This document shows, one piece after another, positions 21,816-57,377 of a stretch of 64,000 nucleotides of DNA. The notes under the pieces were generated by a model. That model did no database searches, was not told the DNA's origin, and saw only the letters and a program-made list of their open reading frames with translations. The stretch's first letter is position 1, and each line of letters starts with the position of its first letter. Origin of the DNA: Minisyncoccota bacterium (lineage in GTDB: Bacteria > Patescibacteriota > Minisyncoccia > Phycocordibacterales > JAACPR01); contig JBAYWG010000001.1 of assembly GCA_041674225.1 (NCBI GenBank), forward strand, positions 38,501-102,500. The letters are read 5' to 3'. A program made the position numbers and the translations under genes.

Positions 21816-23435
21816 TTATTTCAACTCTTCCTCTATCTGACTAACCCACAACGATGGTTTGGAAGCATCCACTTTGACTGGCTTCGTTGTCGAAGAGTCT
21901 GTAACAAAAACCTCAATTGAAGATCCGGCTACAAAGCCTTCACCAACATTTGTCTTCGTTACAATGGTTGAAATCCAACAAAGCCTAGTCGTTCCGTTTA
22001 TCTTTCGAATATACGGCCTATGCTCAGCCACATCATTTGCACTCCAATCAACAGTGTTTGCCTTCTGTTTAATGAAGGTCGCTATTGACGACACGCCAGC
22101 AAGGTTTTCATTCCTTTCCGCGTGTTCATAGTAGTACAATTTTCCAACACCGTCAGCCGGAAAGAACACAGAGACGGACAATCCAGACTTATCACGACTT
22201 TCATCTTGATAAGGCTCCAATGCAAAGTAGTGATACAACTTCGACCTAGCATCCCCTTCGCCGAAGCTAAAGAATGTAGTGAAAGGTTGCTCATTTACAT
22301 CACCCGCTAGATCCGGAATGCGGATATCCCGGTAATGCGTTAGTGGGAAAGGAGCAAGGTATCCATAACGAAACCTGAAGCTGTTCGCAACGTGTCTCGA
22401 TACTTCGTACGGTACAAGATTCTGACCAGCAAGCCAGTCATAATTCTTGATATGCTCCGGACGAATCCAATCTCCTTCTCCAACAAACAATCTCTTAATG
22501 AATTTTAAAAATCCACCTTCTGATTGCTTGATGATTACAACCCCACCGAAATGAGGTCTTGGAAAAATAAATCCGTCCCACTTAGTCAACGTCACACACT
22601 GAACCATCTTTCCATCCGGTCCGGGGATGTACTTCATCGCACTGGGCTCATAGGAGAGAAACCTCCAGAAAGCAAAGCTCTGACGCGCCAAGTAAGACAC
22701 GTCTTTTGTGAAATACATCGTCTCACCTGAATCGAAGTTTACCTTGATCTGGTTTTCTCCACCGAACTCTAGCAACGAACTCTGCCCCGGAAGGCTAAAT
22801 ATCCTATCAACTTTTCCGAAGAATCGTTGATGTGGATAAGCTGGTTCTATGCCCACAGTCCAATGAGGATCACCATCACCCCACGAAACATAGTCCGGAA
22901 CTGGGGTGTGCAATGTATCAGCAATACGAGTATTAGTCGCAGTGTGAATCGAATTCAGTGGATGAATCCGCTCAAATCTCGTCTCTGGCAAAGCTTCCAA
23001 GGAAACTTTGTCCAAAGTTTTGAATTGAGCATACAGTGTGTGGTAATAGTGAGGCTTACTATTTGTTGCAATGACTGCAACTAAGCCTGCAATCACAATT
23101 CCACAGATGAGCAATGTTGGTATGTACCTACCTTTTTTAATTAGTAGGCGCATAACCAAGACAAGAATCACAAATCCCAATATTTCAGGGAGAAGAATTC
23201 TTACATTCACAACGAGAGGTTGAAAGTAGGGCTTGAAAACCCAGAATGTTGGCAAGCCAACGCTCAAGAGCACCAGGCTCTTAACTTTATTCCTCCACAT
23301 AACTGATGCGACCCACCGAAGCAAATGGAAAGGCACCCAAAGGATGCTTCCATATTCTTCCGATCGTCTTCTCCAACGACGACGAGGTTTTTCGACCTCA
23401 GCGTTGGTAGTTGCGGTAATTGTTTCTTCCATCAT
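21816..23435 (-). CDS. Hypothetical membrane-anchored protein (about three N-terminal TM helices plus a roughly 400-aa extracytoplasmic domain)
   Basis: The 539-aa ORF has hydrophobic segments between aa ~40 and 125 and shows higher GC and different codon usage than the neighbouring core genes. Its start overlaps the upstream gene's stop by 4 nt (ATGA). Confidence 0.5.
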   Translation of the reverse strand: MMEETITATTNAEVEKPRRRWRRRSEEYGSILWVPFHLLRWVASVMWRNKVKSLVLLSVGLPTFWVFKPYFQPLVVNVRILLPEILGFVILVLVMRLLIKKGRYIPTLLICGIVIAGLVAVIATNSKPHYYHTLYAQFKTLDKVSLEALPETRFERIHPLNSIHTATNTRIADTLHTPVPDYVSWGDGDPHWTVGIEPAYPHQRFFGKVDRIFSLPGQSSLLEFGGENQIKVNFDSGETMYFTKDVSYLARQSFAFWRFLSYEPSAMKYIPGPDGKMVQCVTLTKWDGFIFPRPHFGGVVIIKQSEGGFLKFIKRLFVGEGDWIRPEHIKNYDWLAGQNLVPYEVSRHVANSFRFRYGYLAPFPLTHYRDIRIPDLAGDVNEQPFTTFFSFGEGDARSKLYHYFALEPYQDESRDKSGLSVSVFFPADGVGKLYYYEHAERNENLAGVSSIATFIKQKANTVDWSANDVAEHRPYIRKINGTTRLCWISTIVTKTNVGEGFVAGSSIEVFVTDSSTTKPVKVDASKPSLWVSQIEEELK

Positions 23436-24079
23436 TTTCTGTTTGTGAATTTTTTGAGAATTTCCATGTCATCTTCTTCTGTGTTTTCGACGACAGGCTC
23501 TTTTTCTTGTTGAATTTGAGGTTCAGTTTCCTTTCCAAACCTTGATTTTCCAGTCACTTTTTTCACAAGTGAATTAGCAGCACCAATGACTTTATCAGTC
23601 ATTACATTTCTTGCTTCCTCAACATCTTGAAAAGCTTCTTTTGCGCCGAACATTAGCTCCTCTTGAAGCTCACCAGTTTTTACTGATTCATGAATCTCAT
23701 CGATCTTATCGATTGCCTTGTCACGACCTCTTTTGATCATGAAAGCAACCGGACCAAAGAGAATCCCCGCAAAAACTAGGATCGCATCCAAAATGGAACT
23801 GAATACCTCGACCACAGGATTTGTTCCCATAAACACCACCATAATGATGTTTGTGAGAGTCGAAATTAAAGCCGCCCAAGCGAACTTGACCGCCAGTTTT
23901 CGATTATAGAGAAACCCAAATTCCTCTTCTGGAGCGAGCTCATCTTTGTGAAAGAGATTGAATCTCTTTCTCTGAAATTTCACACCGTAGACTCTGTCAA
24001 CAATGTAACAGTTGAATCCGATGATGAAGTAAACGAGCAACGAGTAGATGATGTATGTTTTGATTGGAATGGTTTCCAT
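23432..24079 (-). CDS. Hypothetical membrane protein (2-3 TM helices) with an acidic C-terminal tail
   Basis: The 215-aa ORF has hydrophobic helices at aa ~8-30 and ~70-110 and is translationally coupled to the downstream gene. Confidence 0.5.
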   Translation of the reverse strand: METIPIKTYIIYSLLVYFIIGFNCYIVDRVYGVKFQRKRFNLFHKDELAPEEEFGFLYNRKLAVKFAWAALISTLTNIIMVVFMGTNPVVEVFSSILDAILVFAGILFGPVAFMIKRGRDKAIDKIDEIHESVKTGELQEELMFGAKEAFQDVEEARNVMTDKVIGAANSLVKKVTGKSRFGKETEPQIQQEKEPVVENTEEDDMEILKKFTNRK

Positions 24080-24096
24080 TTTCTATTTCCTTTCTC

Positions 24097-25374
24097 TTAG
24101 TTAGTCTTTTTTTGTGCCCTCTTCAGGCGGTTTTTTTCAACACATGCTATGGCGTGTTTTTTTCTTGTTTCACTCCACTGCAAGTATTGGTTGAAGAAGT
24201 ACGGCTTATTAAAGGCGTACGTCAATTCACACGGAGACCAAACCAAAGTGACCAAAAGACTCATCAATAAATTGTAGAGAATTGGATCTTCTTCTGATTT
24301 TACTACTGGTCTCAACAAACAAAGTTTCAATTCCTCAGGAATTTTCTCGACATCAATTTCTTCACCATCAACAATTTGATTGTAAAGTTTTTGTAGATCC
24401 CGATAAATCGAAGGAAGATCATCACTTAAAGTTTTTGCGTAAAAATCCTTCTTCGCATCTGTGATTGACGTGATATCAAAAGCTTCATTATTAGCCTCGT
24501 GACCACAAATCACATGTTCCAAGATAGTCTCACGAAGTCGAAGAAGAATTTGTGGCTTTTGTCTGAATACATCCAGACTGAATTCCAACAACCCTTCCTC
24601 TTTAAGTCGAACTAGGACTTCTTCTTTGTCATTAAGAAACATAACATCTCCACGGCCAATGTATTCGGCTTGCGGAGTTTCAAGAATCATTAATGATTTA
24701 GAATTTTTAAGGTTTCCACGAAAAATATAGACACCTCCAAAAGCTTTGATGTGGAAAGAAGAAACTTTCATGTAAGGAATATTCTCAATCACCAATGAAC
24801 GGTAACGAAGATCTCCAAACCCATTTCCACTCTCCTGCAGTTTTTGTCTCAAATCAGAATTCATCCAATTCAATCCTTGACGAATATCTTGGACGAGACA
24901 TCTTTGTGTACGTGCTGCATTCATCAGACTTCCAATCGTGTGAACTATCACGACAACACTGTTGATCATTAAAAGATCTTCCAGAGTCGTATATTGATCA
25001 AACCGTTGATCCATATCAATCCACATTGCAGTCTGAGAAGTCAGGTCTGCAATTTGTTGTGAAGCCGCTCCGAAAAAAGTCTGCATCAAATCCCGATCAA
25101 ACGAATGATGAGGATAATACACAGGTAGTCCTTTTTGCTCAGGTGTTACCACAATCGCATAAGGATTAGCATCACCATTTGAGAGATAATAATTATCTCC
25201 GAAGTCATCTGCTAATTCCGGAGACCAACCTCTACCATCAATGTGAATTTTTTCTCTTTCGGTAGGCTGTCTTCCGACTTCCATCAAACATTTGTTGTAT
25301 AGGCTGATCACGGCGGGACTTGAAATTTCAATTAATCCATTTCCAAACAATCCACTTTTTCTAAGTTGTTCCAT
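24097..25374 (-). CDS. Hypothetical soluble protein (425 aa)
   Basis: An uninterrupted ORF with no recognisable motif that lies 18 nt upstream of the two membrane protein genes on the same strand. Confidence 0.5.
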   Translation of the reverse strand: MEQLRKSGLFGNGLIEISSPAVISLYNKCLMEVGRQPTEREKIHIDGRGWSPELADDFGDNYYLSNGDANPYAIVVTPEQKGLPVYYPHHSFDRDLMQTFFGAASQQIADLTSQTAMWIDMDQRFDQYTTLEDLLMINSVVVIVHTIGSLMNAARTQRCLVQDIRQGLNWMNSDLRQKLQESGNGFGDLRYRSLVIENIPYMKVSSFHIKAFGGVYIFRGNLKNSKSLMILETPQAEYIGRGDVMFLNDKEEVLVRLKEEGLLEFSLDVFRQKPQILLRLRETILEHVICGHEANNEAFDITSITDAKKDFYAKTLSDDLPSIYRDLQKLYNQIVDGEEIDVEKIPEELKLCLLRPVVKSEEDPILYNLLMSLLVTLVWSPCELTYAFNKPYFFNQYLQWSETRKKHAIACVEKNRLKRAQKKTN

Positions 25375-25456
25375 TTTCTCTATTGTTTTTTGTTGTAAGT
25401 TATTGTCAAAGATTTCCGGCTGATTTTAACACGTTTTTAAAAAAAGTCAAAGAAAA

Positions 25457-25489
25457 AACGAGCTAAATCCCAGGGGGATTTAGCTCGTT
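25457..25489 (-). terminator. Intrinsic terminator after the AAA ATPase gene
   Basis: aacgagctaaatccc-aggg-ggatttagctcgtt forms a 12-bp perfect stem. On the minus strand it is followed by TTTTTTCTTTG. Confidence 0.55.
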
Positions 25490-25507
25490 AAAGAGCAAGC
25501 AAAAAAC

Positions 25508-27493
25508 TCAGTAGATAACATTTGGCGAAATGCCAAGATCTGCTGCACGTTTCTGCGCTGCAAGTCGATTAGAGCCTCTTTTCAGCATAGCCGAAATTTC
25601 ACGCTCATCCTCAACCGAACCAATACGGGCAGCATTAACCAGATACGTAATGGCTTCACGGTATATAACATCAGACAATTTCATGCCTTTGACATTATCA
25701 CTCATTAGACCACGCAGTACTTTCAACCTGTCCTCGAATGGTTTTTCAAAAAACAAAGAATGATCATCGAAGAACTCCTCTGGCATATCGAAATCCATCG
25801 CTCGAATATTGACCGCGCTTTGGATGTTTCGAAGGTCGCGAGAACTGAACATTGGTATCACCTTACGCACTTGCATATAGAGCTTTCCAAAAAATTCAGC
25901 TTCGCAAATTTCATGATCTTTCCGAATTTCTTCGAAAATTTCCAAAATCCTTGGATCAGCAATCTGAACTTCACCAGTCTCAATTTCATCCAGAGAAGCC
26001 AACTTGCGCTGACCGCTCATGAACTCGTAACGAGAGATTGGTTTGATGTCCACAAAATCAGGATTACTCTCAGCGAATTTACTCCACCAAAGATAATCTT
26101 GATCAACAAAGTCTTCGACAGACATTGCCCCATCGATAGGAAACTTACTTTGAACTCGCGACATAATCGCAGGATCAATAGTTTCTGGCAAATTGGTCAT
26201 CAAATCGATTGCCCAGTTACCATTGTTGATGGCATATGCACCTTCGGTGTAACGTAGAAATACTCCCATCAGGATTCTTTCACCCTCAGAAACATCATCT
26301 CCACTTCTATTCTTGAAGTAATTCTCTCCATCATCAATCGGACCGTAGATAACTTTGTCACTATCATGGAATCTTTGCATCCACTTTAGCATGTTGGTAG
26401 CACTTTCTCCTTGAAGGCCTGAGACAATGTTGTCCGGCATAGGATGAAATAGGAACGGAATACCACGTTTGTCACACAAGTCCTGCGCATAAGTTGCAGT
26501 AGCCGCAATGATCAAAGATTTTCCAGTTCCAGGATTACCATGACCTAAACAAATTGGAGTTAACCCTTTCATTACATGCCAAGGATTTTTCTTCAATTTG
26601 ACATCATAACAAGCCAATCTCATCGCTTTACGACGCGCAGCGTGTTTTGCGGCCACGTTTCCGACAATGTCGCCGAAATCCACTCGATTGAATTCACGTG
26701 ACACGACCACAACAACCGACTGCATCTCAAAACCATCAATAATAAACTCCTCATCCTCAAGCTTGTAGCTATTGTTTGTGAAGAAGTCCATATACTCCAT
26801 GGCTCCGAGCCTCTTGGACAATTCGTCCAAGACATTCTCGAAATACATCAGACTGAACTTGATAAAAGAAGTCGAATCGCGAACGATATTTCCCCTTTCA
26901 AGATACAGTCCGTAATAATACAGAATACAGTTGGTTGAAACAAAATTGTCAGTCAAATTTATTTCCGGAATCCCTCCGAAAGGCAAATCGATGACACTAG
27001 TTTTATCCGCCTTGTAACTACTCAACTTCCAACGAATGTAAGAAGCGGTAGCAAAAACTGAAGCGAATGTTCCCGTTTGTTTTTGAGAATTGAAAATTTT
27101 CATTTCACTCTCCAACAGCCGACTAGACGTATTCCGAAGAATAAGCTGATCAAGACCAGAAGCTTGGCAGTAGAGTTCGAAAACCCTCATACCAATCATG
27201 AATCCTGTACGAATACTATCCAAGACATAAACAGCGTCTACATCGAGAAGTGATTCGTCACCAAAGATTTTTGCGACAGAATCACGTATTTTCACAGAAT
27301 CTTTTCCCCCACCAAAATCAATCGACGAGGCTGGAAGCCATGTGCCGGGTTGAGCAGCGGTTGAAACCATTTTGTTGGCGGCATCCTTTTTGGGAGTCCA
27401 CTCAACAATCTTGAGCTTCGGATTGACTCGTTCCCTGTGTTCTTGATATTCCGATTTTTTTAGCGGAATGTGTGCTTTCGCGTTAGTTGACAT
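25508..27493 (-). CDS. AAA+ ATPase (classic AAA clade) with a roughly 300-aa uncharacterised N-terminal domain
   Basis: It has Walker A GHGNPGTGKS and an atypical Walker B region KVIYGPIDDGE. The second region of homology, MTNLPETIDPAIMSRV, matches the canonical ATNRPDxLDPALLR. Confidence 0.7.
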   Translation of the reverse strand: MSTNAKAHIPLKKSEYQEHRERVNPKLKIVEWTPKKDAANKMVSTAAQPGTWLPASSIDFGGGKDSVKIRDSVAKIFGDESLLDVDAVYVLDSIRTGFMIGMRVFELYCQASGLDQLILRNTSSRLLESEMKIFNSQKQTGTFASVFATASYIRWKLSSYKADKTSVIDLPFGGIPEINLTDNFVSTNCILYYYGLYLERGNIVRDSTSFIKFSLMYFENVLDELSKRLGAMEYMDFFTNNSYKLEDEEFIIDGFEMQSVVVVVSREFNRVDFGDIVGNVAAKHAARRKAMRLACYDVKLKKNPWHVMKGLTPICLGHGNPGTGKSLIIAATATYAQDLCDKRGIPFLFHPMPDNIVSGLQGESATNMLKWMQRFHDSDKVIYGPIDDGENYFKNRSGDDVSEGERILMGVFLRYTEGAYAINNGNWAIDLMTNLPETIDPAIMSRVQSKFPIDGAMSVEDFVDQDYLWWSKFAESNPDFVDIKPISRYEFMSGQRKLASLDEIETGEVQIADPRILEIFEEIRKDHEICEAEFFGKLYMQVRKVIPMFSSRDLRNIQSAVNIRAMDFDMPEEFFDDHSLFFEKPFEDRLKVLRGLMSDNVKGMKLSDVIYREAITYLVNAARIGSVEDEREISAMLKRGSNRLAAQKRAADLGISPNVIY

Positions 27494-28613
27494 TGAGTAC
27501 TCCTTTTTGTGTGTAGGTTATTGTTTGATGTTGTTTGTAAGGCGAAAAATATTCCGCCGTACGATTGATATTTTGCAGAACACGATGAGGAAGCATTAAT
27601 TTTCTCACAACACTCGTTGCTCGATTTTCATATGCAATCCGGTCATCATTTGGAATGAAGAAAACTTCACGAACTCTACCGCCCCTAGAAAACACTCCTG
27701 AGGTAACTTTACTACCCGTAGAAATTATTTTTTCCGAACGCAGTTCAAGAACGAAATCATTCTCGCCACCGTATTTCCTGAGTAATTCACAAAAATCAGC
27801 ACCACTTTCACTCACGCTTGTCAGCGGAGTAAACAGGGGTCCAATTTGAATCCTCTCCAAAAATTTTGGATGAATAGAATTTGAATGATCATCAATCTGA
27901 TGAATCAAAACTCCGATTTGCGGAACATGTTTACTTGAAAAGGAAACAGTATCCACAAATTGTTTCCAATCATCTCCACCATCCTCAAGGGGCTCACGGC
28001 TTGAATCCTGCTCAAATACCAAACTATGAAAGTAAGGCATATTGCAAATTTCTCCATAAACCGCCCAAGTAAAAATGTATCGACGATGTTCTTTGTCGTC
28101 GGAATCCAATCTTTCAAGACCTCCCATTGTAAAAGGTAGAAACATTCTACTCTCGTCCAAAAGATTCGCGTACTCACTTTTAGACAAATCTGAAAGAACT
28201 TCAGTTGTGTCAGCTCCTGTTGTAAGAAGCTTATCAACCAAAATATTTTTCAGCGTTTCCACACCTGCAACATTACGTGCAAGATCAACCTTTCGATTTA
28301 AATCATTTACAGTTTGGAAAATCGAAATTGCGTGTGGAAAACCAGATTCATTCAAATCCAGAGCCAATTCATGACTCGAATTAAAAGAATACTTGATCTT
28401 CAACAACACAATCGTGTAAAGCAGTCGATCAATCATGGGTTTTAAATCGCGCACAACATGATCCGTCGAGCTCCTCACACCTATCCACTCAAGAACTCGT
28501 CCAAGGACAACAGTCATGAGTATAAAGTATTTCGAGTATTCGTCTGGATTTTCGAGTTGCGCGAAATCTCCACACAATCTTTGTTCATCAATTGTTTTTA
28601 TTTCTCTATTCAA
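27483..28613 (-). CDS. Hypothetical protein (376 aa), translationally coupled to the AAA ATPase gene
   Basis: The ORF has no recognisable motif and overlaps the downstream AAA gene start by 11 nt. Confidence 0.5.
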   Translation of the reverse strand: MNREIKTIDEQRLCGDFAQLENPDEYSKYFILMTVVLGRVLEWIGVRSSTDHVVRDLKPMIDRLLYTIVLLKIKYSFNSSHELALDLNESGFPHAISIFQTVNDLNRKVDLARNVAGVETLKNILVDKLLTTGADTTEVLSDLSKSEYANLLDESRMFLPFTMGGLERLDSDDKEHRRYIFTWAVYGEICNMPYFHSLVFEQDSSREPLEDGGDDWKQFVDTVSFSSKHVPQIGVLIHQIDDHSNSIHPKFLERIQIGPLFTPLTSVSESGADFCELLRKYGGENDFVLELRSEKIISTGSKVTSGVFSRGGRVREVFFIPNDDRIAYENRATSVVRKLMLPHRVLQNINRTAEYFSPYKQHQTITYTQKGVLNVN

Positions 28614-41087: not shown

Positions 41088-41114
41088 TTAGTGGAGGAAA
41101 TTAAAGAAAAACAA

Positions 41115-41145
41115 AAGAGCCGGCAGCGAAGCTGCCGGCTCTTTT
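41115..41145. terminator. Bidirectional intrinsic terminator
   Basis: aaagagccggcagc-gaa-gctgccggctcttt is flanked by T/A tracts and lies between thrS (+) and the YG-repeat gene (-). Confidence 0.55.
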
Positions 41146-41202
41146 GCATTATTAAGTTAGATTAGATTAAATTAGTTTAGTTCAAATTAGATTTATCTTT
41201 GA

Positions 41203-42567
41203 TTAAGCAATTTTATTTGCGTTCTTATTTTGTTCTTTAAAATCTGAGATTTTATTAGAAACAACTTTTAGAGATCTTTGTTTCTTGAAATATAGAGCTA
41301 TCGCTGTACTCCATACTGCGATTAGAGCAAAAATTCCAAGAGCTTTTGCAATATCACTTGCTCCTGTATAAGGAACTTGTGATAGAAAGATTGAATCCAA
41401 AGATGAAAGATTACCTGTTGGTGTACCTAAGTTTGTTCCAGTAGTTACTGTAACTCTTCGGTCATCATCATCATTATCATCGTCATCATCATCCTCGTCT
41501 TCTACACGAACATCAGGACATTCGTCAGTAGCTCGGTCGCCATTAGCGTCACGTACTTCTACTGAAACTTCGTATGTCCCTCTTCGGTTGTAACGAACTC
41601 TTTCTTCGTCATCATCTCCAGAGATATCACCTTTCCATTCAATTCGGTATGATGATCTTCCTCCATCGATTTCAACTTCATAAGTCACTGTGTCTCCTTC
41701 CTCGATTCGAGTATCAGAAACTCTACAGATAATATTTAGATCGTCATCATCGTCATCGTTTGACTGAACAATGTGAGTTGTTGTACTACAATTAACATTG
41801 TTTACACTGCTACTTGCGTTACCAACATTACTACAATGAGCATTAATAGAGTTATCTGTAATAATTACATCGTCATCACTGTAGTTTAGATTTAATCCAA
41901 GAGCGTTCATTCCACCACCTTGTGAACCTCCACCTCCACAACCTGATCCAGAACATCCTCCTCCATTAGAACCTCCACCACCTTGTGAACCTCCTCCATT
42001 ATAACCTCCACCGTTAGATCCTCCTCCAGTGTAACCACCGTTAGAACCTGATCCACCTCCTAGGTAAGAATCGATGTAACTATCTGCTACACCATATCCA
42101 CCATAGTCGTAACCAGCGTAGTCATATCCACCGTAATCGTAACCAGCGTAGTCATATCCACCATAGTCGTAACCAGCGTAGTCATATCCACCGTAGTCGT
42201 AACCAGCGTAGTCATATCCACCGTAATCGTATCCAGCGTAGTCATATCCACCGTAATCGTATCCAGCGTAGTCATATCCACCGTAGTCATAACCAGAGTA
42301 ATCGTATCCACCGTAGTCGTATCCACTGTAGTCATACCCACCGTAATCATAACCAGAGTAATCGTATCCACCGTAATCGTATCCACCGTAGTCGTATCCA
42401 CCGTAGTCGTATCCACTTGATCCATAATCATATCCTCCACCGTAGTCATACCCACCGTAGTCGTATTGAGCTGATGCGTTTTCAATATTGAAAACACCGA
42501 AAGCTGTAAATACTACAAAAAGTAATACGAAAGCGTTAATGATGTTTAATTGTTTTTTGATAATCAT
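41203..42567 (-). CDS. Secreted YDYGG-repeat / Gly-rich / Asp-rich surface protein with a C-terminal VPYTG motif, TM helix and basic tail (candidate sortase substrate)
   Basis: A signal peptide is followed by about 25 copies of (G/S/A)YDYGGYDY, then a GGSNGGG region. An Ig-like segment between poly-Asp runs comes next, and the C-terminus reads VPYTGAS...IFALIAVWSTAIALYF-KKQRSLK. Confidence 0.7.
   Translation of the reverse strand: MIIKKQLNIINAFVLLFVVFTAFGVFNIENASAQYDYGGYDYGGGYDYGSSGYDYGGYDYGGYDYGGYDYSGYDYGGYDYSGYDYGGYDYSGYDYGGYDYAGYDYGGYDYAGYDYGGYDYAGYDYGGYDYAGYDYGGYDYAGYDYGGYDYAGYDYGGYGVADSYIDSYLGGGSGSNGGYTGGGSNGGGYNGGGSQGGGGSNGGGCSGSGCGGGGSQGGGMNALGLNLNYSDDDVIITDNSINAHCSNVGNASSSVNNVNCSTTTHIVQSNDDDDDDLNIICRVSDTRIEEGDTVTYEVEIDGGRSSYRIEWKGDISGDDDEERVRYNRRGTYEVSVEVRDANGDRATDECPDVRVEDEDDDDDDNDDDDRRVTVTTGTNLGTPTGNLSSLDSIFLSQVPYTGASDIAKALGIFALIAVWSTAIALYFKKQRSLKVVSNKISDFKEQNKNANKIA
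42091..42470. repeat. Near-perfect 30-bp tandem DNA repeat encoding the YDYGGYDYxG array
   Basis: The unit gtcatatccaccgtaatcgtaaccagcgta is repeated about 12 times, with only occasional a/g and t/c changes. Confidence 0.8.
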
Positions 42568-42733
42568 GATAATTGTTTTATATAAGATAATTTGAACATT
42601 ACACTAAATTTGTAACGTATTTATATGATAACATTTTTATATACAAATGTCAATCCTTATCTTTACTTTAAATAAAAATGCCTCGCCGTCTGAATTAACA
42701 AACGACGAGGACATTGAGCAAGATTTTCACTTA

Positions 42734-43411
42734 CTATTCCGCAAGGATGTACGGCACAACGACCGTCTCATTCCTCGAAGTACTGAAGACACTGAAGGTC
42801 TTGATTTCCTTACCGCTCGCCAACCGACGAACGTCAGGGTTAGTCGAGGCCGATTCCCCATTTACAGGTCCTCGCGGACCGACGAAGGTTTTGATTTTTT
42901 CGCCAGTATCCGGGTGGGTCCCGTCTTCCAGTCTCCAGCCGACGTTGTCACCGATAGTGACAGGGGTACTCGATTGAGCACCACTACCCCTCACAACAGT
43001 CTTGCGAACCACATGGTAAGCACCAGTGGCAGAAGCCTCGAGTTTCTCACCCGGAAACAACTTGTTGCTGGTAATCGCCTTGAAGATCTTCGCGTCTGCA
43101 GGGTCTGGGTCATGCATCAACCCCAACATAAAGACTTCGCCTTCATGCGACCACCCAGCGAACGTGTCCACCGGTTCTCCAACCTTGGTGTACATGTCGC
43201 ACAAGCGGATGATCTGAGGCCAAGCGTTACAATCGGAGCCATAAGCCTCGACGAATTTTTGCCACAAATCCTGTTTCACCAAGCCAGGCTTGACGTCGAG
43301 GACAACCGAAGGATTCGCGTCAGGCATCTTAACGACACCTTGAGCCTGTGAATTACCGGTGATAAAAAATACCACCGCCGTCATGATGATTGCAATTGCT
43401 GCGTTTTTCAT
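42734..43411 (-). CDS. Secreted hypothetical protein (225 aa, signal peptide)
   Basis: The N-terminus MKNAAIAIIMTAVVFFITGNSQAQG is a clear Sec signal peptide. The region has higher GC, and a terminator hairpin sits downstream at about 42681-42712. The opposite-strand ORF at 42647-43351 is judged spurious. Confidence 0.5.
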   Translation of the reverse strand: MKNAAIAIIMTAVVFFITGNSQAQGVVKMPDANPSVVLDVKPGLVKQDLWQKFVEAYGSDCNAWPQIIRLCDMYTKVGEPVDTFAGWSHEGEVFMLGLMHDPDPADAKIFKAITSNKLFPGEKLEASATGAYHVVRKTVVRGSGAQSSTPVTIGDNVGWRLEDGTHPDTGEKIKTFVGPRGPVNGESASTNPDVRRLASGKEIKTFSVFSTSRNETVVVPYILAE

Positions 43412-43521
43412 AATAATCTTAATCTTGTTTTTGGTTTGTGAATGATTCTCTGATTCCCAAATAGCATAGCATATTATACGGATTTGTCAACAGTCACTAA
43501 ATACCCCATACATAAAGAAAA

Positions 43522-43554
43522 AACCGTAATCGCGCATTACACACGATTACGGTT
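43522..43554 (-). terminator. Intrinsic terminator after the FGEIRGG-repeat gene
   Basis: aaccgtaatcg-cgcattacaca-cgattacggtt forms an 11-bp stem. On the minus strand it is followed by TTTTTTCTTTATG. Confidence 0.5.
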
Positions 43555-43562
43555 AGTGATTT

Positions 43563-44600
43563 TTACCTCCTGATTCCAGACATCATTCCATGAATCATCT
43601 GCCCTAGGGAAGGATGATTCTGATGAGAGTCTCTTCCACCTCTTTCACGTTGAAAGTCTTGTAGACATCTCTCCCGATAGTCAGGACGATAAGGTCCTGT
43701 ACGATACATTGGTGACCGCACCGGTGATCGATTATTTGTTGTAAAGAAATTATTTCTTGGCGCCATATGATTCGCCATAAAGAAATTATTTCTCGGCTGC
43801 TCTCTGTAAGAAGTACGGGGATGTGTCGTTGTAAAACAATCATCTCTCGGTAACTCTCTGTAAGAAGTACGAGTAGGTATCACTTCCGCACGATAAATAG
43901 GTTGAGTCCGAACATGTTCTCTCACAACTGGTCGTTCACAAGTAACTTGAGGTTGTCCTATTTCTACACACCCAAGATTCAAGGATGACTCACAATTACC
44001 AACGGTATTTGTCACACCACGAATTTCTCCAAATGTTGTAGAAGCAGCACGACGATTGTCGTGAATGATTGCTGTTCTTCCACGGATTTCTCCGAAGGTT
44101 ACATCCACACTACGACTATCCTCATGAATCATCGTTTTGCCACCACGGATTTCTCCGAAGGAAACATCGACATTTCTGTGGTCTTCACAAATAACGGTTG
44201 CACCGCCACGGATTTCACCGAAGGTTACACTAACACTACGGCTATCATCTTCAATAATAGTCATACCACCGCGAATTTCTCCGAAATTCACAACTGAACT
44301 GCGTTCATCCCGAACAATCTTTATTCCACCATAAACTTCTCCAAAGGTCACGAGGTATTGCTCGGGCTCAGGAGGTTCATCTCCACCGCTCTTGTCCCAG
44401 GGTATACCTGGTGTAGGAACGGGTTTAATATACGGATCACCAAAAAGTGGTATTGGGGGGATTTCGTCGGACTTTTCCGCACCAGGAACTGGTGGAGGAA
44501 GAATGCGACCATCGTCATCAGGCTTTACATTTCCATCATCCGAACTGACATTCACCGACATCATACCAAGCGTGAAAAATATCAAGTAAGTAATTTTCAT
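43563..44600 (-). CDS. Secreted protein with six 22-aa tandem repeats (TFGEIRGGxTxIxEDxRSVxV) and a Pro/Arg/Tyr-rich C-terminal region
   Basis: A signal peptide and Pro-rich linker are followed by the repeat block, then a Cys-containing segment and an R/Y/P-rich tail (SYRELPR.../SYREQPR...). Confidence 0.55.
   Translation of the reverse strand: MKITYLIFFTLGMMSVNVSSDDGNVKPDDDGRILPPPVPGAEKSDEIPPIPLFGDPYIKPVPTPGIPWDKSGGDEPPEPEQYLVTFGEVYGGIKIVRDERSSVVNFGEIRGGMTIIEDDSRSVSVTFGEIRGGATVICEDHRNVDVSFGEIRGGKTMIHEDSRSVDVTFGEIRGRTAIIHDNRRAASTTFGEIRGVTNTVGNCESSLNLGCVEIGQPQVTCERPVVREHVRTQPIYRAEVIPTRTSYRELPRDDCFTTTHPRTSYREQPRNNFFMANHMAPRNNFFTTNNRSPVRSPMYRTGPYRPDYRERCLQDFQRERGGRDSHQNHPSLGQMIHGMMSGIRR
43990..44350. 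repeat. Imperfect ~66-bp tandem repeats (6 copies) encoding the FGEIRGG 22-aa units
   Basis: ccacggatttctccgaaggt..., ccgccacggatttcaccgaaggt... and ccaccgcgaatttctccgaaat... recur at about 66-bp spacing. Confidence 0.7.
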
Positions 44601-44694
44601 ATTTAAATAACTGGGTTGCGCTCGACGTTTTGTCGGGCTATTTCAAAATAAGAATACCATATTTAGCCAGCAGAGTCAAAACAAAAAAATCCGA

Positions 44695-45411
44695 TTACCC
44701 CTTAATCACAGCATCCACCACCCACCTATCACTCTTAGTTCCAAAAGAATTACATGTAGAAATTGTTAGTCTTCTTCCACTTCTACTCAAATCTATAAAA
44801 GCACTCTCGGCATCAGCTTGATACACCTTCTCAATAACATAAGTGTATTTTTGACCGTTCGCATATAAAATAATCTCATCACCTATTTTTGACTTCTCTA
44901 TTCCATTAAAAGTTTTGTAAGCTTGATTGATCACGACTGGCAAACCACTACTGTGTCCAAAAATAAAAATATTTCCTTTTTCAATAAAACCAGAGCCAGG
45001 ATAATACACAGCACCTTTTTGCAAAGCAGAATCCAAGACATCAATCATCGGACTTTGTGGTTGCAAAACGACAGAATCAATTCCAACTGAAGGAATTAAA
45101 ATTCGTGAAGGTTTAGATAATTGTGTCTCTGTTGGTGCCACTGCCAATTGCGAATTGTCTTCACTTCTCAAAATTCTTCCTTCTCGATCACGCACATAAC
45201 TCACCTCTTCTAGAGAATTCGGATCGCTAATAGAGGTATTTGTAGAATAATTTATTTTTTCTTTCTCTTCTTGCTTATTAGTAGTAGTAAATTCTTTTGG
45301 AATTAAATTTTTAGGAAGTAGCCCAAATAATGCAAAAACAAAAATAGAAACTAAAAAAATTCCAGCAGCTTGGGTCCAGAAAAGTGCGTTCTCGTTTTTT
45401 TTAAGACTCAT
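44695..45411 (-). CDS. Sortase-family transpeptidase
   Basis: An N-terminal TM anchor is followed by catalytic-region motifs: FIFGHSSG (His), TISTCNSFG (Cys in a TxxTC context) and a downstream Arg. Confidence 0.7.
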   Translation of the reverse strand: MSLKKNENALFWTQAAGIFLVSIFVFALFGLLPKNLIPKEFTTTNKQEEKEKINYSTNTSISDPNSLEEVSYVRDREGRILRSEDNSQLAVAPTETQLSKPSRILIPSVGIDSVVLQPQSPMIDVLDSALQKGAVYYPGSGFIEKGNIFIFGHSSGLPVVINQAYKTFNGIEKSKIGDEIILYANGQKYTYVIEKVYQADAESAFIDLSRSGRRLTISTCNSFGTKSDRWVVDAVIKG

Positions 45412-45518: not shown

Positions 45519-45604
45519 GCGTAGGTGGCAGAGCGGTCAAATGCAGCGGACTGTAAATCCGCCGACTTCGGTCTACGGGGGTTCGAATCCCTCTCTACGC
45601 ACCA
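45519..45604 (+). tRNA. tRNA-Tyr (anticodon GTA), with encoded CCA
   Basis: Cloverleaf by hand: acceptor gcgtagg/tctacgc, anticodon stem gcgga/tccgc, loop ctGTAaa, a long variable arm and the T-loop ttcgaat. Confidence 0.85.
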
Positions 45605-56312: not shown

Positions 56313-57377
56313 TTATTGTATAATTAAAGAGTCTATTGGTATATTCTGTTTACCGAGTGTTGGTTGCTGCTCTAAATTGATCCCGACAGTATCACCAATC
56401 ATTTTTGTAAATCCCCAAACACCAGCCAAAACTAATAGTAGTATAATTCCCCAGGTCATGTAAGCAACAGCTTCCCCTTTTTTCTTTGCATTTTCTGTAG
56501 TGGTGTATTTAAAGACTCCCCACAGAAACAGGAATATTCCAATTGTCACCAAAAGAGGTAGAGCAGTTTGGACTATATCCATTAATTTTATAATAGAAGT
56601 ATTTATACCAGCTCCACCGGCAGAATTAGTCTGTGTGGGCGGGTCAATTGTAGGTTTTGTCGTAAGATCTTCGACTGCTTCACCTGAGCTCCCTGGTTCA
56701 GCCGGATTTGTATCGCTGAAAATTGTTTGTTGCAAAATAACCACAAATCCCCAAACAAAAACCATCACCGTAATAGCGACGATTCCCCAAGTCATAAAAC
56801 TTCTCGCTAACTCTTTGTTTTTGGCATCCGTAGAAAATGCATAGCGCAAAACTCCAAAAAGAAACAACAGAACAGCAAGCAAAATTACAATCGGTATAAC
56901 ATCCGCAACAATATCTCCAACTATTTTCAATCTATCCAAAATTGGTGTACCCCCAGATAATCCAGAGCCCTCTGATTTTGGAATTTCTTTCAATCCAGCA
57001 ACTTCTTTTTCAGGAGCACGACTATTATCAGTCCCTCCTAAAAATGCATCTTGTAACAAAAACACAATTCCCCAAATAGAAACCATGACAAAAAGAGAAA
57101 TAATTCCCCAAGTCATAAATCCTATTGATTCCTTTTTACTTTTCGGATCAGGAGAAGAAAGATATTTCAAAATTCCCCACAGAAATACGAGTAAACCAAG
57201 ACCAATAACAATCGGGATCAACCTTTGTACAGCATCAGCAATAGTTTCCAAAATTTCTGTAGCTGTTTTACCAGAAGAACCACCTACCCCTGCATCAGCT
57301 GGATTTTGAGCAAATGAAATTAAAGGTAGTAGTAGTCCAGCGAGAGTAAAAATTGTTTTTTGAATAATTTTTATCAT
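56313..57377 (-). CDS. Triple tandem fusion of the pilin-like two-TM module (354 aa, signal peptide)
   Basis: The LIPIVIGL...FLWGILKY...SxDxKxK...FMTWGII...VWG unit occurs three times, separated by Gly/Pro/Ser-rich linkers. Confidence 0.55.
   Translation of the reverse strand: MIKIIQKTIFTLAGLLLPLISFAQNPADAGVGGSSGKTATEILETIADAVQRLIPIVIGLGLLVFLWGILKYLSSPDPKSKKESIGFMTWGIISLFVMVSIWGIVFLLQDAFLGGTDNSRAPEKEVAGLKEIPKSEGSGLSGGTPILDRLKIVGDIVADVIPIVILLAVLLFLFGVLRYAFSTDAKNKELARSFMTWGIVAITVMVFVWGFVVILQQTIFSDTNPAEPGSSGEAVEDLTTKPTIDPPTQTNSAGGAGINTSIIKLMDIVQTALPLLVTIGIFLFLWGVFKYTTTENAKKKGEAVAYMTWGIILLLVLAGVWGFTKMIGDTVGINLEQQPTLGKQNIPIDSLIIQ

Follow-up and report, generated by a model that had tools for sequence, protein, structure and literature searches.

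A gene at positions 41203..42567 on the minus strand of a 64,000-nucleotide stretch of Minisyncoccota bacterium DNA (contig JBAYWG010000001.1, assembly GCA_041674225.1; the whole stretch is hereafter called the window) encodes a tyrosine-rich protein whose C-terminus resembles a sortase sorting signal of unusual form. This product, designated MOD (PYTG-module surface protein), is probably a Sec-exported surface protein of a Candidatus Paceibacterota member of the Candidate Phyla Radiation (CPR), and a dedicated substrate of the sortase encoded upstream of it. The gene is classified as an ordinary member of an undescribed family, one that works like the LPXTG/sortase system in a new form. We describe below the anatomy of the protein, its family and motif pattern, the linkage of the family to sortase genes, the PKD fold in the ectodomain, and a difference in repeat copy number between assemblies.

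The open reading frame (ORF) is present exactly at these coordinates in the ORF list, with a length of 454 residues. Its parts, and the sortase gene, are given here with the evidence for each (AF2, AlphaFold2; pLDDT, predicted local distance difference test; TRF, Tandem Repeats Finder).

41203..42567, minus strand: MOD, the PYTG-module surface protein, complete coding sequence of 454 residues (ORF list; syntenic orthologues at loci L001 and L002)
42469..42567, minus strand: Sec-type signal peptide, residues 1-33, MIIKKQ…NASA followed by Q (sequence; AF2 N-terminal helix at residues 3-23)
42091..42465, minus strand: Tyr/Asp/Gly repeat region, residues 35-159, with 24 YDYxG pentapeptides (TRF; unit table; composition; AF2 pLDDT <50)
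42112..42291, minus strand: six near-identical 30-bp units, YDYGGYDYAG, in which assemblies differ in copy number (94% mean pairwise identity)
42087..42497, minus strand: out-of-frame ORF of 136 residues, MTTVD… repeats (same strand, other frame, wholly within the MOD coding sequence)
41905..42090, minus strand: Gly-rich linker, residues 160-221, with CSGSGCGG (sequence; CSGSxCGG recurs in close relatives; AF2 disorder)
41761..41904, minus strand: Asn/Ser/Thr-rich segment, residues 222-269 (ALGLNLNYSDDD…), with two Cys (kept in the close subfamily; AF2 low confidence)
41740-41760, minus strand: poly-Asp run, residues 270-276 (sequence)
41494..41739, minus strand: PKD-like Ig domain, residues 277-358 (Pfam, AF2, Foldseek)
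41446-41493, minus strand: second acidic run, DDDDDDNDDDD then RRVTV, residues 359-374 (sequence)
Residues 375-391, minus strand: Thr/Gly/Asn/Ser-rich linker (sequence)
41362..41394, minus strand: extended sorting motif SIFLSQVPYTG, residues 392-402 (family profile)
41362-41376, minus strand: VPYTG pentapeptide, residues 398-402, with the predicted scissile bond between T401 and G402 (by analogy with LPXTG)
Residues 403-409, minus strand: spacer ASDIAKA (sequence)
41287..41340, minus strand: transmembrane helix LGIFALIAVWSTAIALYF, residues 410-427, with a conserved W-S pair (hydropathy scan; AF2 helix 403-453)
41266..41286, minus strand: basic cluster KKQRSLK, residues 428-434 (sequence; family K/R enrichment at +30 to +36)
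41206..41265, minus strand: conserved cytoplasmic tail helix VVSNKISDFKEQNKNANKIA, residues 435-454 (family motif S..I..FK..N; AF2 helix)
44695..45411, minus strand: membrane-anchored sortase of 238 residues, the presumed cognate enzyme (Pfam Sortase, E=6e-18)

The C-terminal PYTG module and its family

MOD opens with the secretion signal of LPXTG-type proteins (MIIKKQ, a hydrophobic core, and ASA before Q, the cleavage site being placed by the AxA rule) and closes with SIFLSQVPYTG, ASDIAKA, LGIFALIAVWSTAIALYF, KKQRSLK and VVSNKISDFKEQNKNANKIA, in that order. The spacer of about 7 residues, the hydrophobic stretch of about 18 and the basic heptapeptide reproduce the tripartite layout of a sorting signal, and the family profile described below agrees with it. 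An initial annotation of the locus, made from the letters alone, had read this end as VPYTGAS, 16 hydrophobic residues and KKQRSLK; the order of motif, membrane span and basic cluster was right, while the stretch is in fact about 18 residues long and is followed by 20 further conserved residues.

A HMMER scan of 1.84 billion cluster representatives with residues 222-454 as the query recovered 796 relatives of MOD at E<=1e-3, including 82 at E<=1e-30. This full scan was needed, as a word-indexed search with the 85-residue tail had found no relatives. The module was present in 109 of the best 150 HMMER matches, which amounts to at least 109 distinct clusters at 50% identity. The expectation that other proteins would carry a PYTG-like signal was thus borne out, with hundreds in the HMMER family sharing it; within the 64-kb window itself, no PxTG motif with a transmembrane segment and basic tail was found besides that of MOD, save in one spurious 71-residue ORF.

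Anchoring 95 of the 109 module sequences on the motif gave a family profile with the consensus P-x-G-N-L-A-S-L-S-S-V-[YF]-L-[SN]-Q-[VIL]-P-Y-T-G-P-E-D-x-x-K, followed downstream by a transmembrane segment bearing W-S, a K/R cluster and S-x-[RK]-I-x-x-F-K-x-x-N. P, T and G are each invariant (95/95). Of these, T was not forced by the selection pattern, which required P and G and admitted S as well as T, and its invariance is a real finding. The pentapeptide starts with V in 69 sequences, with I in 21 and with L in only 5, unlike the L of LPXTG, and x is almost always Tyr (86/95; otherwise A, S, Q, H, R or V). Also unlike the classical signal, conservation in the MOD family reaches six residues upstream (SV[YF]L[SN]Q), with L(-3) in 94/94, V(-5) in 87/94 and Q(-1) in 87/95, and extends to a W-S pair within the membrane span (W 58/95, S 75/95). 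In the tail, the F is invariant in alignment A1 and the K and N are kept in at least 90%. As judged from these alignments, [VIL]-P-x-T-G with P, T and G fixed is the conservation pattern of LPXTG.

Existing models are blind to the module. Neither of the LPXTG-anchor hidden Markov models (HMMs), PF00746 (Gram_pos_anchor) and TIGR01167, matches full-length MOD at E<=0.1 or its 75-residue tail at E<=10; the isolated module draws only noise from Pfam and NCBIfam (Prp, DUF4808 and DUF2306, E>0.02), and the module profile has no match in the PDB. No Pfam or NCBIfam model therefore covers the PYTG module. Those relatives that bear names are all entered as “hypothetical protein” of Candidatus Pacebacteria or Parcubacteria, and, by sequence comparison, the module would represent a large, CPR-specific and unannotated family. 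More than half of CPR are reported to have a sortase family, fam000526 (PMC6744442), and CPR proteins carrying “sortase motifs” have been mentioned (PMC5220378); the signal and gene pair considered here is described nowhere in the literature searched on sortases in CPR, Patescibacteria or Parcubacteria.

Linkage to a sortase

The sortase gene that the initial annotation placed 2 kb away lies on the same strand as MOD, 2,128 bp upstream. Its closest PDB match is Bacillus anthracis SrtA (2kw8, E=6e-5). Against the NCBIfam class models it scores 29 and 26 bits for class D/SrtD (cutoffs 140 and 165), 23 bits for class E (cutoff 160) and 21 bits for class C (cutoff 160), with no match to the class A, B and F models. 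Since every class score falls below its cutoff, the product is best described as a sortase-fold enzyme outside the defined classes A-F. The His, Cys and Arg residues of the catalytic triad are kept in at least 90% of 49 family sortases.

A metagenome scan with the module pattern yielded 80 loci, and a sortase HMM built from them found one sortase in 46 of these loci, in addition to the window, L001 and L002. For counting linkage, loci were collapsed at 90% identity and at least 1 kb of upstream sequence was required, leaving 42. At 30 of the 42, no more than 250 bp separates MOD from a co-directional sortase gene immediately upstream, and several of these sortase genes abut or overlap the start of MOD (gap about 0). 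The sortase is 0.25-2.5 kb upstream at another six, the window among them, and 18 bp downstream at one; at five, the available sequence contains none. A sortase on the same strand within 2.5 kb is therefore found at 37 of 42 loci, and together with the invariant P, T and G this upholds the original proposal of a sortase-type sorting signal.

The wider neighborhood is also ordered, running ClpB, sortase, MOD, ThrRS, DnaE and RNase HII, with ThrRS at 46 loci and DnaE at 39. As ThrRS and DnaE are equally conserved, part of the sortase linkage can be attributed to vertical inheritance of one locus in one clade. A purely historical linkage is nonetheless disfavored by the motif pattern, by the tight co-directional spacing of sortase and substrate, and by a natural rearrangement: on contig Ga0247836_1000029 the locus is split, so that one PYTG gene (L020) has kept the sortase as its neighbor and another (L025) has kept ThrRS and DnaE.

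There is one module gene per locus among the loci scanned. With no second one in the window, this follows the logic of a “dedicated system” (Haft & Varghese, PMC3237569), and essentially one enzyme per adjacent substrate sets the family apart from the one-to-many arrangement of LPXTG systems. The same authors described such a pairing in Gram-negative marine proteobacteria, where sortase TIGR03784 is found with a single adjacent LPXTG target (Haft & Varghese 2011, PMC3237569). Both cases involve one sortase and one neighboring target outside of the Firmicutes and Actinobacteria. They differ in that the MOD target carries PKD and Tyr repeats rather than VIT/vWA (TIGR03784/TIGR03788), that its signal includes the extended motif and the conserved tail, and that the host belongs to CPR/Paceibacterota. 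No homology was detected between the two enzymes, the window sortase having no match to TIGR03784 at E<=0.1.

Set beside LPXTG/sortase systems of classes A-F as a whole, the MOD family thus shares the signal peptide, the pentapeptide with invariant P, T and G, the membrane span and basic cluster, a nearby sortase-fold enzyme with a His/Cys/Arg triad, and Ig-like ectodomain modules (PKD, SpaA_2, DUF11). Besides the differences already given, it departs from them in the helix of 17-20 residues or cytoplasmic region of up to about 340 residues that continues past the basic cluster, and in being undetected by standard models (PF00746 and TIGR01167 for the module; for the sortase, 29 bits against a cutoff of 140, for example).

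The conserved tail and the case against cleavage

A classical LPXTG sorting signal ends at its basic cluster. In 192 family members (redundant copies included), 35-45 residues follow the motif Gly in 15, 46-65 in 142, MOD among them, and more than 65 in 35, the longest tail reaching 346 (228-337 in the loci examined). Sequences of all three tail forms stand directly after a sortase, and each of the 15 short-tail relatives with assessable upstream sequence adjoins one, except L082. The long-tail members (L058, L062, L063, L065-L068 and L072-L079) have cytoplasmic extensions of 230-340 residues with two conserved helical regions, …ALISxDALKxI…EDGWLLLNKEK… and …FLxxxxxGDxxxxxxxLRxL…YRSR…LGxKLAxMR…, and these domains have no Pfam match. 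AF2 models residues 403-453 of MOD as one unbroken helix (pLDDT about 80-89).

Several observations weigh against MOD being a cleaved sortase substrate. Foremost is the conserved helix of 17-20 residues beyond the basic cluster, which is odd because the segment would be discarded after sortase cleavage; the 35 of 192 members with 66-346 residues after the membrane span, mostly conserved cytoplasmic sequence, carry the same point further. One relative, L052, consists of a signal peptide, motif, membrane span and cytoplasmic domain with almost no ectodomain to display. The curated LPXTG-anchor HMMs fail to recognize the tail even at E<=10, and ThrRS and DnaE are as conserved near MOD as the sortase is. 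In the window, the sortase-MOD pair is interrupted by 2.1 kb, MOD apparently having a promoter of its own, and no peptidoglycan genes were seen in the annotated part (ten further ORFs); the presence of peptidoglycan in this lineage is expected from CPR genomes in general. Finally, the proposed function is read from sequence.

Much of this would be expected if MOD were an uncleaved type I membrane protein, with SV[YF]LSQVPYTG serving as a structural juxtamembrane element or docking site, the membrane span and tail providing a permanent anchor and a link to a cytoplasmic partner, and the adjacency of the sortase reflecting inherited synteny or a non-catalytic partnership. The conserved W-S pair and S..I..FK..N tail with its invariant F, the long cytoplasmic regions, the minimal L052, the equal synteny of ThrRS and DnaE and the silence of the LPXTG HMMs all speak for this arrangement. 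We nevertheless consider it unlikely: a sortase active site selects exactly this pattern of a variable x among fixed P, T and G, the same-strand gaps of about 0-100 bp (some genes abutting or overlapping) suggest co-expression of sortase and MOD, the pair is kept together after rearrangement in L020, and canonical short-tail members exist. Conservation of the tail does not by itself exclude cleavage, since the cleaved C-peptide may have a function of its own. A precedent is found in Streptococcus gordonii, where the two-component kinase SGO_1180 senses the membrane remnant of an LPXTG signal (summarized in PMC11326707). A functional remnant of membrane span plus tail could likewise explain the conservation seen in MOD. 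The parallel is one of analogy only, the tail motif being unrelated and no sensor kinase or partner having been identified for MOD.

Long-tail loci have a further peculiarity. Just upstream of the sortase, and divergently transcribed, is an N-terminally anchored protein of about 370 residues with Ig/CARDB-like C-terminal repeats (all on the minus strand: L048 5728-6873, L052 3060-4178, L065 6611-7741, L067 6355-7437), which could be a third component of the long-tail variant.

Ectodomain architecture

The mature ectodomain of MOD is 23% Gly, 16% Tyr and 16% Asp, with a net charge of about -57 and a single Lys (K312). In an AF2 model made with a 38-sequence alignment, residues 27-271 are disordered (about 240 residues of the ectodomain) and residues 272-360 form a beta-sandwich with pLDDT >90. 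The initial annotation had called for a structural prediction of the segment between the poly-Asp runs, and the outcome is a PKD-like fold. The Pfam PKD match on MOD itself is below threshold (E=0.003, 18 bits, gathering cutoff 23.5); many relatives have precomputed PF00801 or PF18911 matches. In a Foldseek search of the PDB, the top hits are the PKD-like domains of the clostridial collagenases ColG and ColH (4aqo, 4tn9, 2y72), with target-normalized TM-scores of 0.64-0.74. The best of these scores, 0.68-0.74, go with a root-mean-square deviation of 2.4-2.7 Å over 83-87 residues. These models support the assignment of the segment as a PKD-like domain with the PKD-type beta-sandwich fold. The best structural match, 4aqo, is a calcium-bound form, and the MOD domain is flanked by acidic residues. 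Sequence identity to the collagenase domains is only about 19%, and MOD, a non-enzymatic surface protein, has just one such domain, set between long poly-Asp runs. Across the family, ectodomains bear PKD, SpaA_2 and DUF11 domains, all typical of sortase-anchored proteins.

Such Ig-like modules raise the prospect that MOD is a pilin-like subunit, polymerized by its sortase into a covalent fiber in the manner of class C enzymes instead of being attached singly to the wall. The PKD domain, SpaA_2 in some relatives, the weak similarity of the sortase to classes C and D, and the abundant filaments on CPR cells (PMC6744442; bioRxiv 10.64898/2026.03.03.709456) are all compatible with this. It is very improbable even so. 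The lone ectodomain Lys, K312, is Asp or Ser in close orthologues, and there is no conserved nucleophile or YPKN-like motif; the loci each pair a single sortase with a single substrate and contain neither a second pilin nor a housekeeping sortase; and some 240 residues of the ectodomain are predicted to be disordered. The missing conserved Lys makes pilus polymerization unlikely, and a sortase-assembled pilin was rejected on that ground.

A second kind of CPR pilus was also considered. The Pam pilus (NF058578 PamR; bioRxiv 10.64898/2026.03.03.709456) is likewise a CPR-specific surface structure of Ig-like folds, and PamR weakly matches the PKD region of MOD (E=0.033, 13 bits, against an equivalog cutoff of 300). 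However, Pam pili are assembled by donor-strand exchange with chaperone-usher-like factors and not by a sortase (bioRxiv 10.64898/2026.03.03.709456), there are no pam genes nearby, and MOD is not a member.

A C-x3-C motif that runs into a stretch of Gly (CSGSGCGGGG, CTQNCGGGG, CQSNCGGGG and similar) recurs in family ectodomains. The copy in the window is at MOD residues 205-214 (about 41926-41955), and others occur in L058, L065, L067, L075 and L062. The motif is found in both short-tail and long-tail subfamilies at varying distance from the PYTG motif, and the strict pattern C-x3-C-G-G is present in 12 of 160 family members.

The YDYxG repeat array

Tyr makes up 39% of the repeat region of MOD (residues 35-159). 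At the DNA level, TRF reads positions 42093-42415 as 10.8 copies of a 30-bp period with 88% matches, and the score of 471 is far beyond chance. The basic period is 15 nt, and the 24 YDYxG pentapeptides group into ten full 30-nt double units with a mean pairwise identity of 88%. The six 3′-proximal units (42112-42291) have 0-3 differences each, and the four preceding them are 73-83% identical to their neighbors; relative to the consensus, the units show 18 synonymous and 5 non-synonymous differences. The claim of about 12 almost identical units thus holds for the existence of the array and for part of it, and overstates both the copy number and the uniformity, only six units reaching 94%. As had been proposed, the out-of-frame ORF (42087..42497) is artefactual, a product of the repeat.

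Repeat-length variation between strains had also been predicted, and several observations bear on it. A 242,629-bp ENA contig (L083), retrieved via its identical sortase sequence, matches the window at 100% identity over 12.7 kb with zero substitutions and a single 60-bp gap, which corresponds to two 30-bp units missing from the six-unit block and gives a MOD of 434 residues rather than 454. Two Logan contigs of SRR6484325 likewise match the window without a difference (100% identity) and stop at 42256 and 42122, at either flank of the six-unit block, so that this assembly breaks inside the array. Exact-sequence look-up of the 454-residue product returned no record, while look-ups of the neighboring sortase and ThrRS succeeded. 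The data fit a heterogeneous population as well as a failure of short-read assembly to resolve the six-unit block.

It is accordingly possible, though we lean the other way, that the near-identical units arose in assembly and that their copy number and polymorphism are artefactual, in which case the biology would be unchanged and a recent expansion or high slippage rate would stand undemonstrated. A lone 60-bp difference amid 12.7 kb without substitutions is typical of repeat collapse when the same population has been assembled twice; the broken Logan contigs and the absence of the exact product from the records fit with this. On the other side, the array is seen in three independent assemblies, its units bear distinguishing differences that are mostly synonymous, and two near-identical relatives, P0166 and P0172, are separated by a clean indel of one unit (29 residues). 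The predicted length variation is supported by these differences, subject to possible short-read collapse of the repeat.

Moreover, orthologues have wholly different repeat sequences, which means that fast turnover of the region is real at longer timescales. Close orthologues (L001, L002, P0151, P0155-7, P0005, P0164-6 and P0172) share every domain except the repeat sequence, and their flanking genes, such as ClpB, are closely similar by inspection. Among the repeat forms are YDYGG, WGYSDYG, SNLGYSN, ASNYYTPSS, WAYDDYGYSNYSN and GYATDYADYGG, and distant family members have yet other Tyr/Asp/Gly/Ser/Asn repeats. A 60-residue segment with at least 30% Tyr occurs in 43 of 160 non-redundant family members, again with unrelated repeat sequences. 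The retention of composition and position while the sequence turns over is the behavior expected of a disordered, exposed contact region, and the repeat head, which changes very rapidly as units are gained, lost and replaced, is the likely contact or adhesion surface.

Proposed mechanism

Taking MOD as a dedicated sortase substrate, its path to the surface can be sketched. The signal peptide would be removed, and the C-terminal helix, basic cluster and conserved tail would retain the protein in the membrane. The sortase would then recognize the extended motif of about 11 residues, SxxLSQ-VPYTG, just outside of the membrane and cleave between Thr401 and Gly402, a position chosen by analogy with LPXTG. 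The ectodomain would be transferred to an envelope amine, most likely of a peptidoglycan precursor, leaving a C-peptide of about 50 residues (membrane span plus I..FK..N helix) in the membrane. On the exported portion, the PKD-like domain between its poly-Asp runs could act as an acidic, possibly Ca2+-stabilized stalk, and the disordered Tyr/Asp/Gly head as the distal interaction surface. We infer the cleavage, the wall attachment and the adhesive role from these features taken together. A peptide spanning the predicted cleavage motif, DSIFLSQVPYTGASD, is a candidate sortase substrate.

A bolder version, which we place on the unlikely side, is that of a display-and-signal device. Cleavage between Thr and Gly would expose the hypervariable Tyr/Asp-rich surface, and the conserved membrane remnant would report on or regulate surface assembly from inside. 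The remnant would be the W-S helix with its I..FK..N tail, or the cytoplasmic region of about 230-340 residues in sister subfamilies. The sortase/PYTG pair would, on such a scheme, be an undescribed core CPR-specific envelope module with an unusually long, single-substrate recognition sequence.

Flanking features and neighboring genes

Between and around the two genes, the following features were recorded.

42568..44694, minus strand: variable higher-GC slot that splits the sortase-substrate pair (GC 0.44-0.52, against 0.37 for the window)
42734-43411, minus strand: ORF225, in the slot (GC 0.52; signal peptide; terminator-like hairpin after it)
43563-44600, minus strand: ORF345, in the slot, 333 residues in public records (terminator-like hairpin after it)
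42625..42653, minus strand: promoter-like TTGACA-17-(TG)TATCAT just upstream of the MOD start (best match of the region, 11/12 positions)
41111..41147, no strand assigned: GC-rich hairpin with A and T runs on its flanks, in the gap where the ThrRS and MOD genes converge (17-pair stem, 10 GC pairs)
45519-45604, plus strand: tRNA-Tyr(GTA), with ClpB on one side and the sortase on the other, immediately ahead of the MOD operon

Most family loci have no insert between sortase and MOD. In a sub-clade, however, the slot is occupied (L001 4294-5279; L002 8425-9559; L005 7674-8827; L015 8390-9277; L028 6091-7963), mostly by unrelated secreted or membrane ORFs with a GC content 4-14 points above the locus average. 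The inserts of L002 and L005 are homologous (E=4e-18), the only such pair, and the two insert ORFs of the window match nothing among them. A search of 5.8 billion proteins found no homologue of ORF225 but itself, entered there as the product of a Candidatus Paceibacterota MAG, which fixes the lineage. This ORF (225 residues, minus strand) is overlapped by one of 234 residues on the opposite strand (42647-43351, plus), and public gene calls differ accordingly, the ENA contig having the 234-residue plus-strand ORF and the Logan contig and NCBI the 225-residue minus-strand ORF. ORF345 has a signal peptide, at least five repeats of about 20 residues (V.FGEIRGG..I..D.R) and a Pro/Arg-rich tail, with no Pfam or NCBIfam match.

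The promoter-like site before MOD is only suggestive, the overall number of such sites being not above chance. The hairpin downstream of MOD is likely, from its sequence, to be a bidirectional terminator. The tRNA-Tyr gene occupies the same position, in either orientation, at 15 more loci (L001, L002, L005, L015, L016, L018, L020, L028, L033, L036, L037, L041, L043, L044 and L050). A MOD with at least 20% Tyr per 60-residue segment is encoded at 12 of the 16 tRNA-Tyr loci and at 5 of the 24 without the tRNA, an association confounded by phylogeny. Elsewhere in the window, there is an unannotated run of genes at 21816-28613 on the minus strand, including an AAA ATPase (25508-27493) and a DUF6638 protein (24097-25374), and a protein with a CPR-type T4SS_pilin domain (PF18895) is encoded at 56313-57377, also on the minus strand.

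Significance

A life attached to other cells is commonly ascribed to CPR/Patescibacteria, yet their surface proteins are almost entirely “hypothetical”. What began as one odd repeat gene is now a defined and widespread family of at least 109 clusters at 50% identity, with a cognate enzyme, a conserved chromosomal position (ClpB, tRNA-Tyr, sortase, substrate, ThrRS, DnaE) and a C-terminal module that could become an annotation HMM. If the proposed recognition is true, the family would offer a natural sortase with a recognition sequence of about 11 residues, of potential interest for engineered protein ligation. From the conserved post-membrane tail comes a further question, hardly explored for sorting signals, of whether the membrane remnant may have a function of its own. 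For the bacteria themselves, the Tyr/Asp/Gly repeat head is a candidate fast-evolving contact surface, the sortase/PYTG pair is a strong candidate for the means of attaching such a protein, and together they provide a concrete candidate for how CPR bacteria decorate their envelope.

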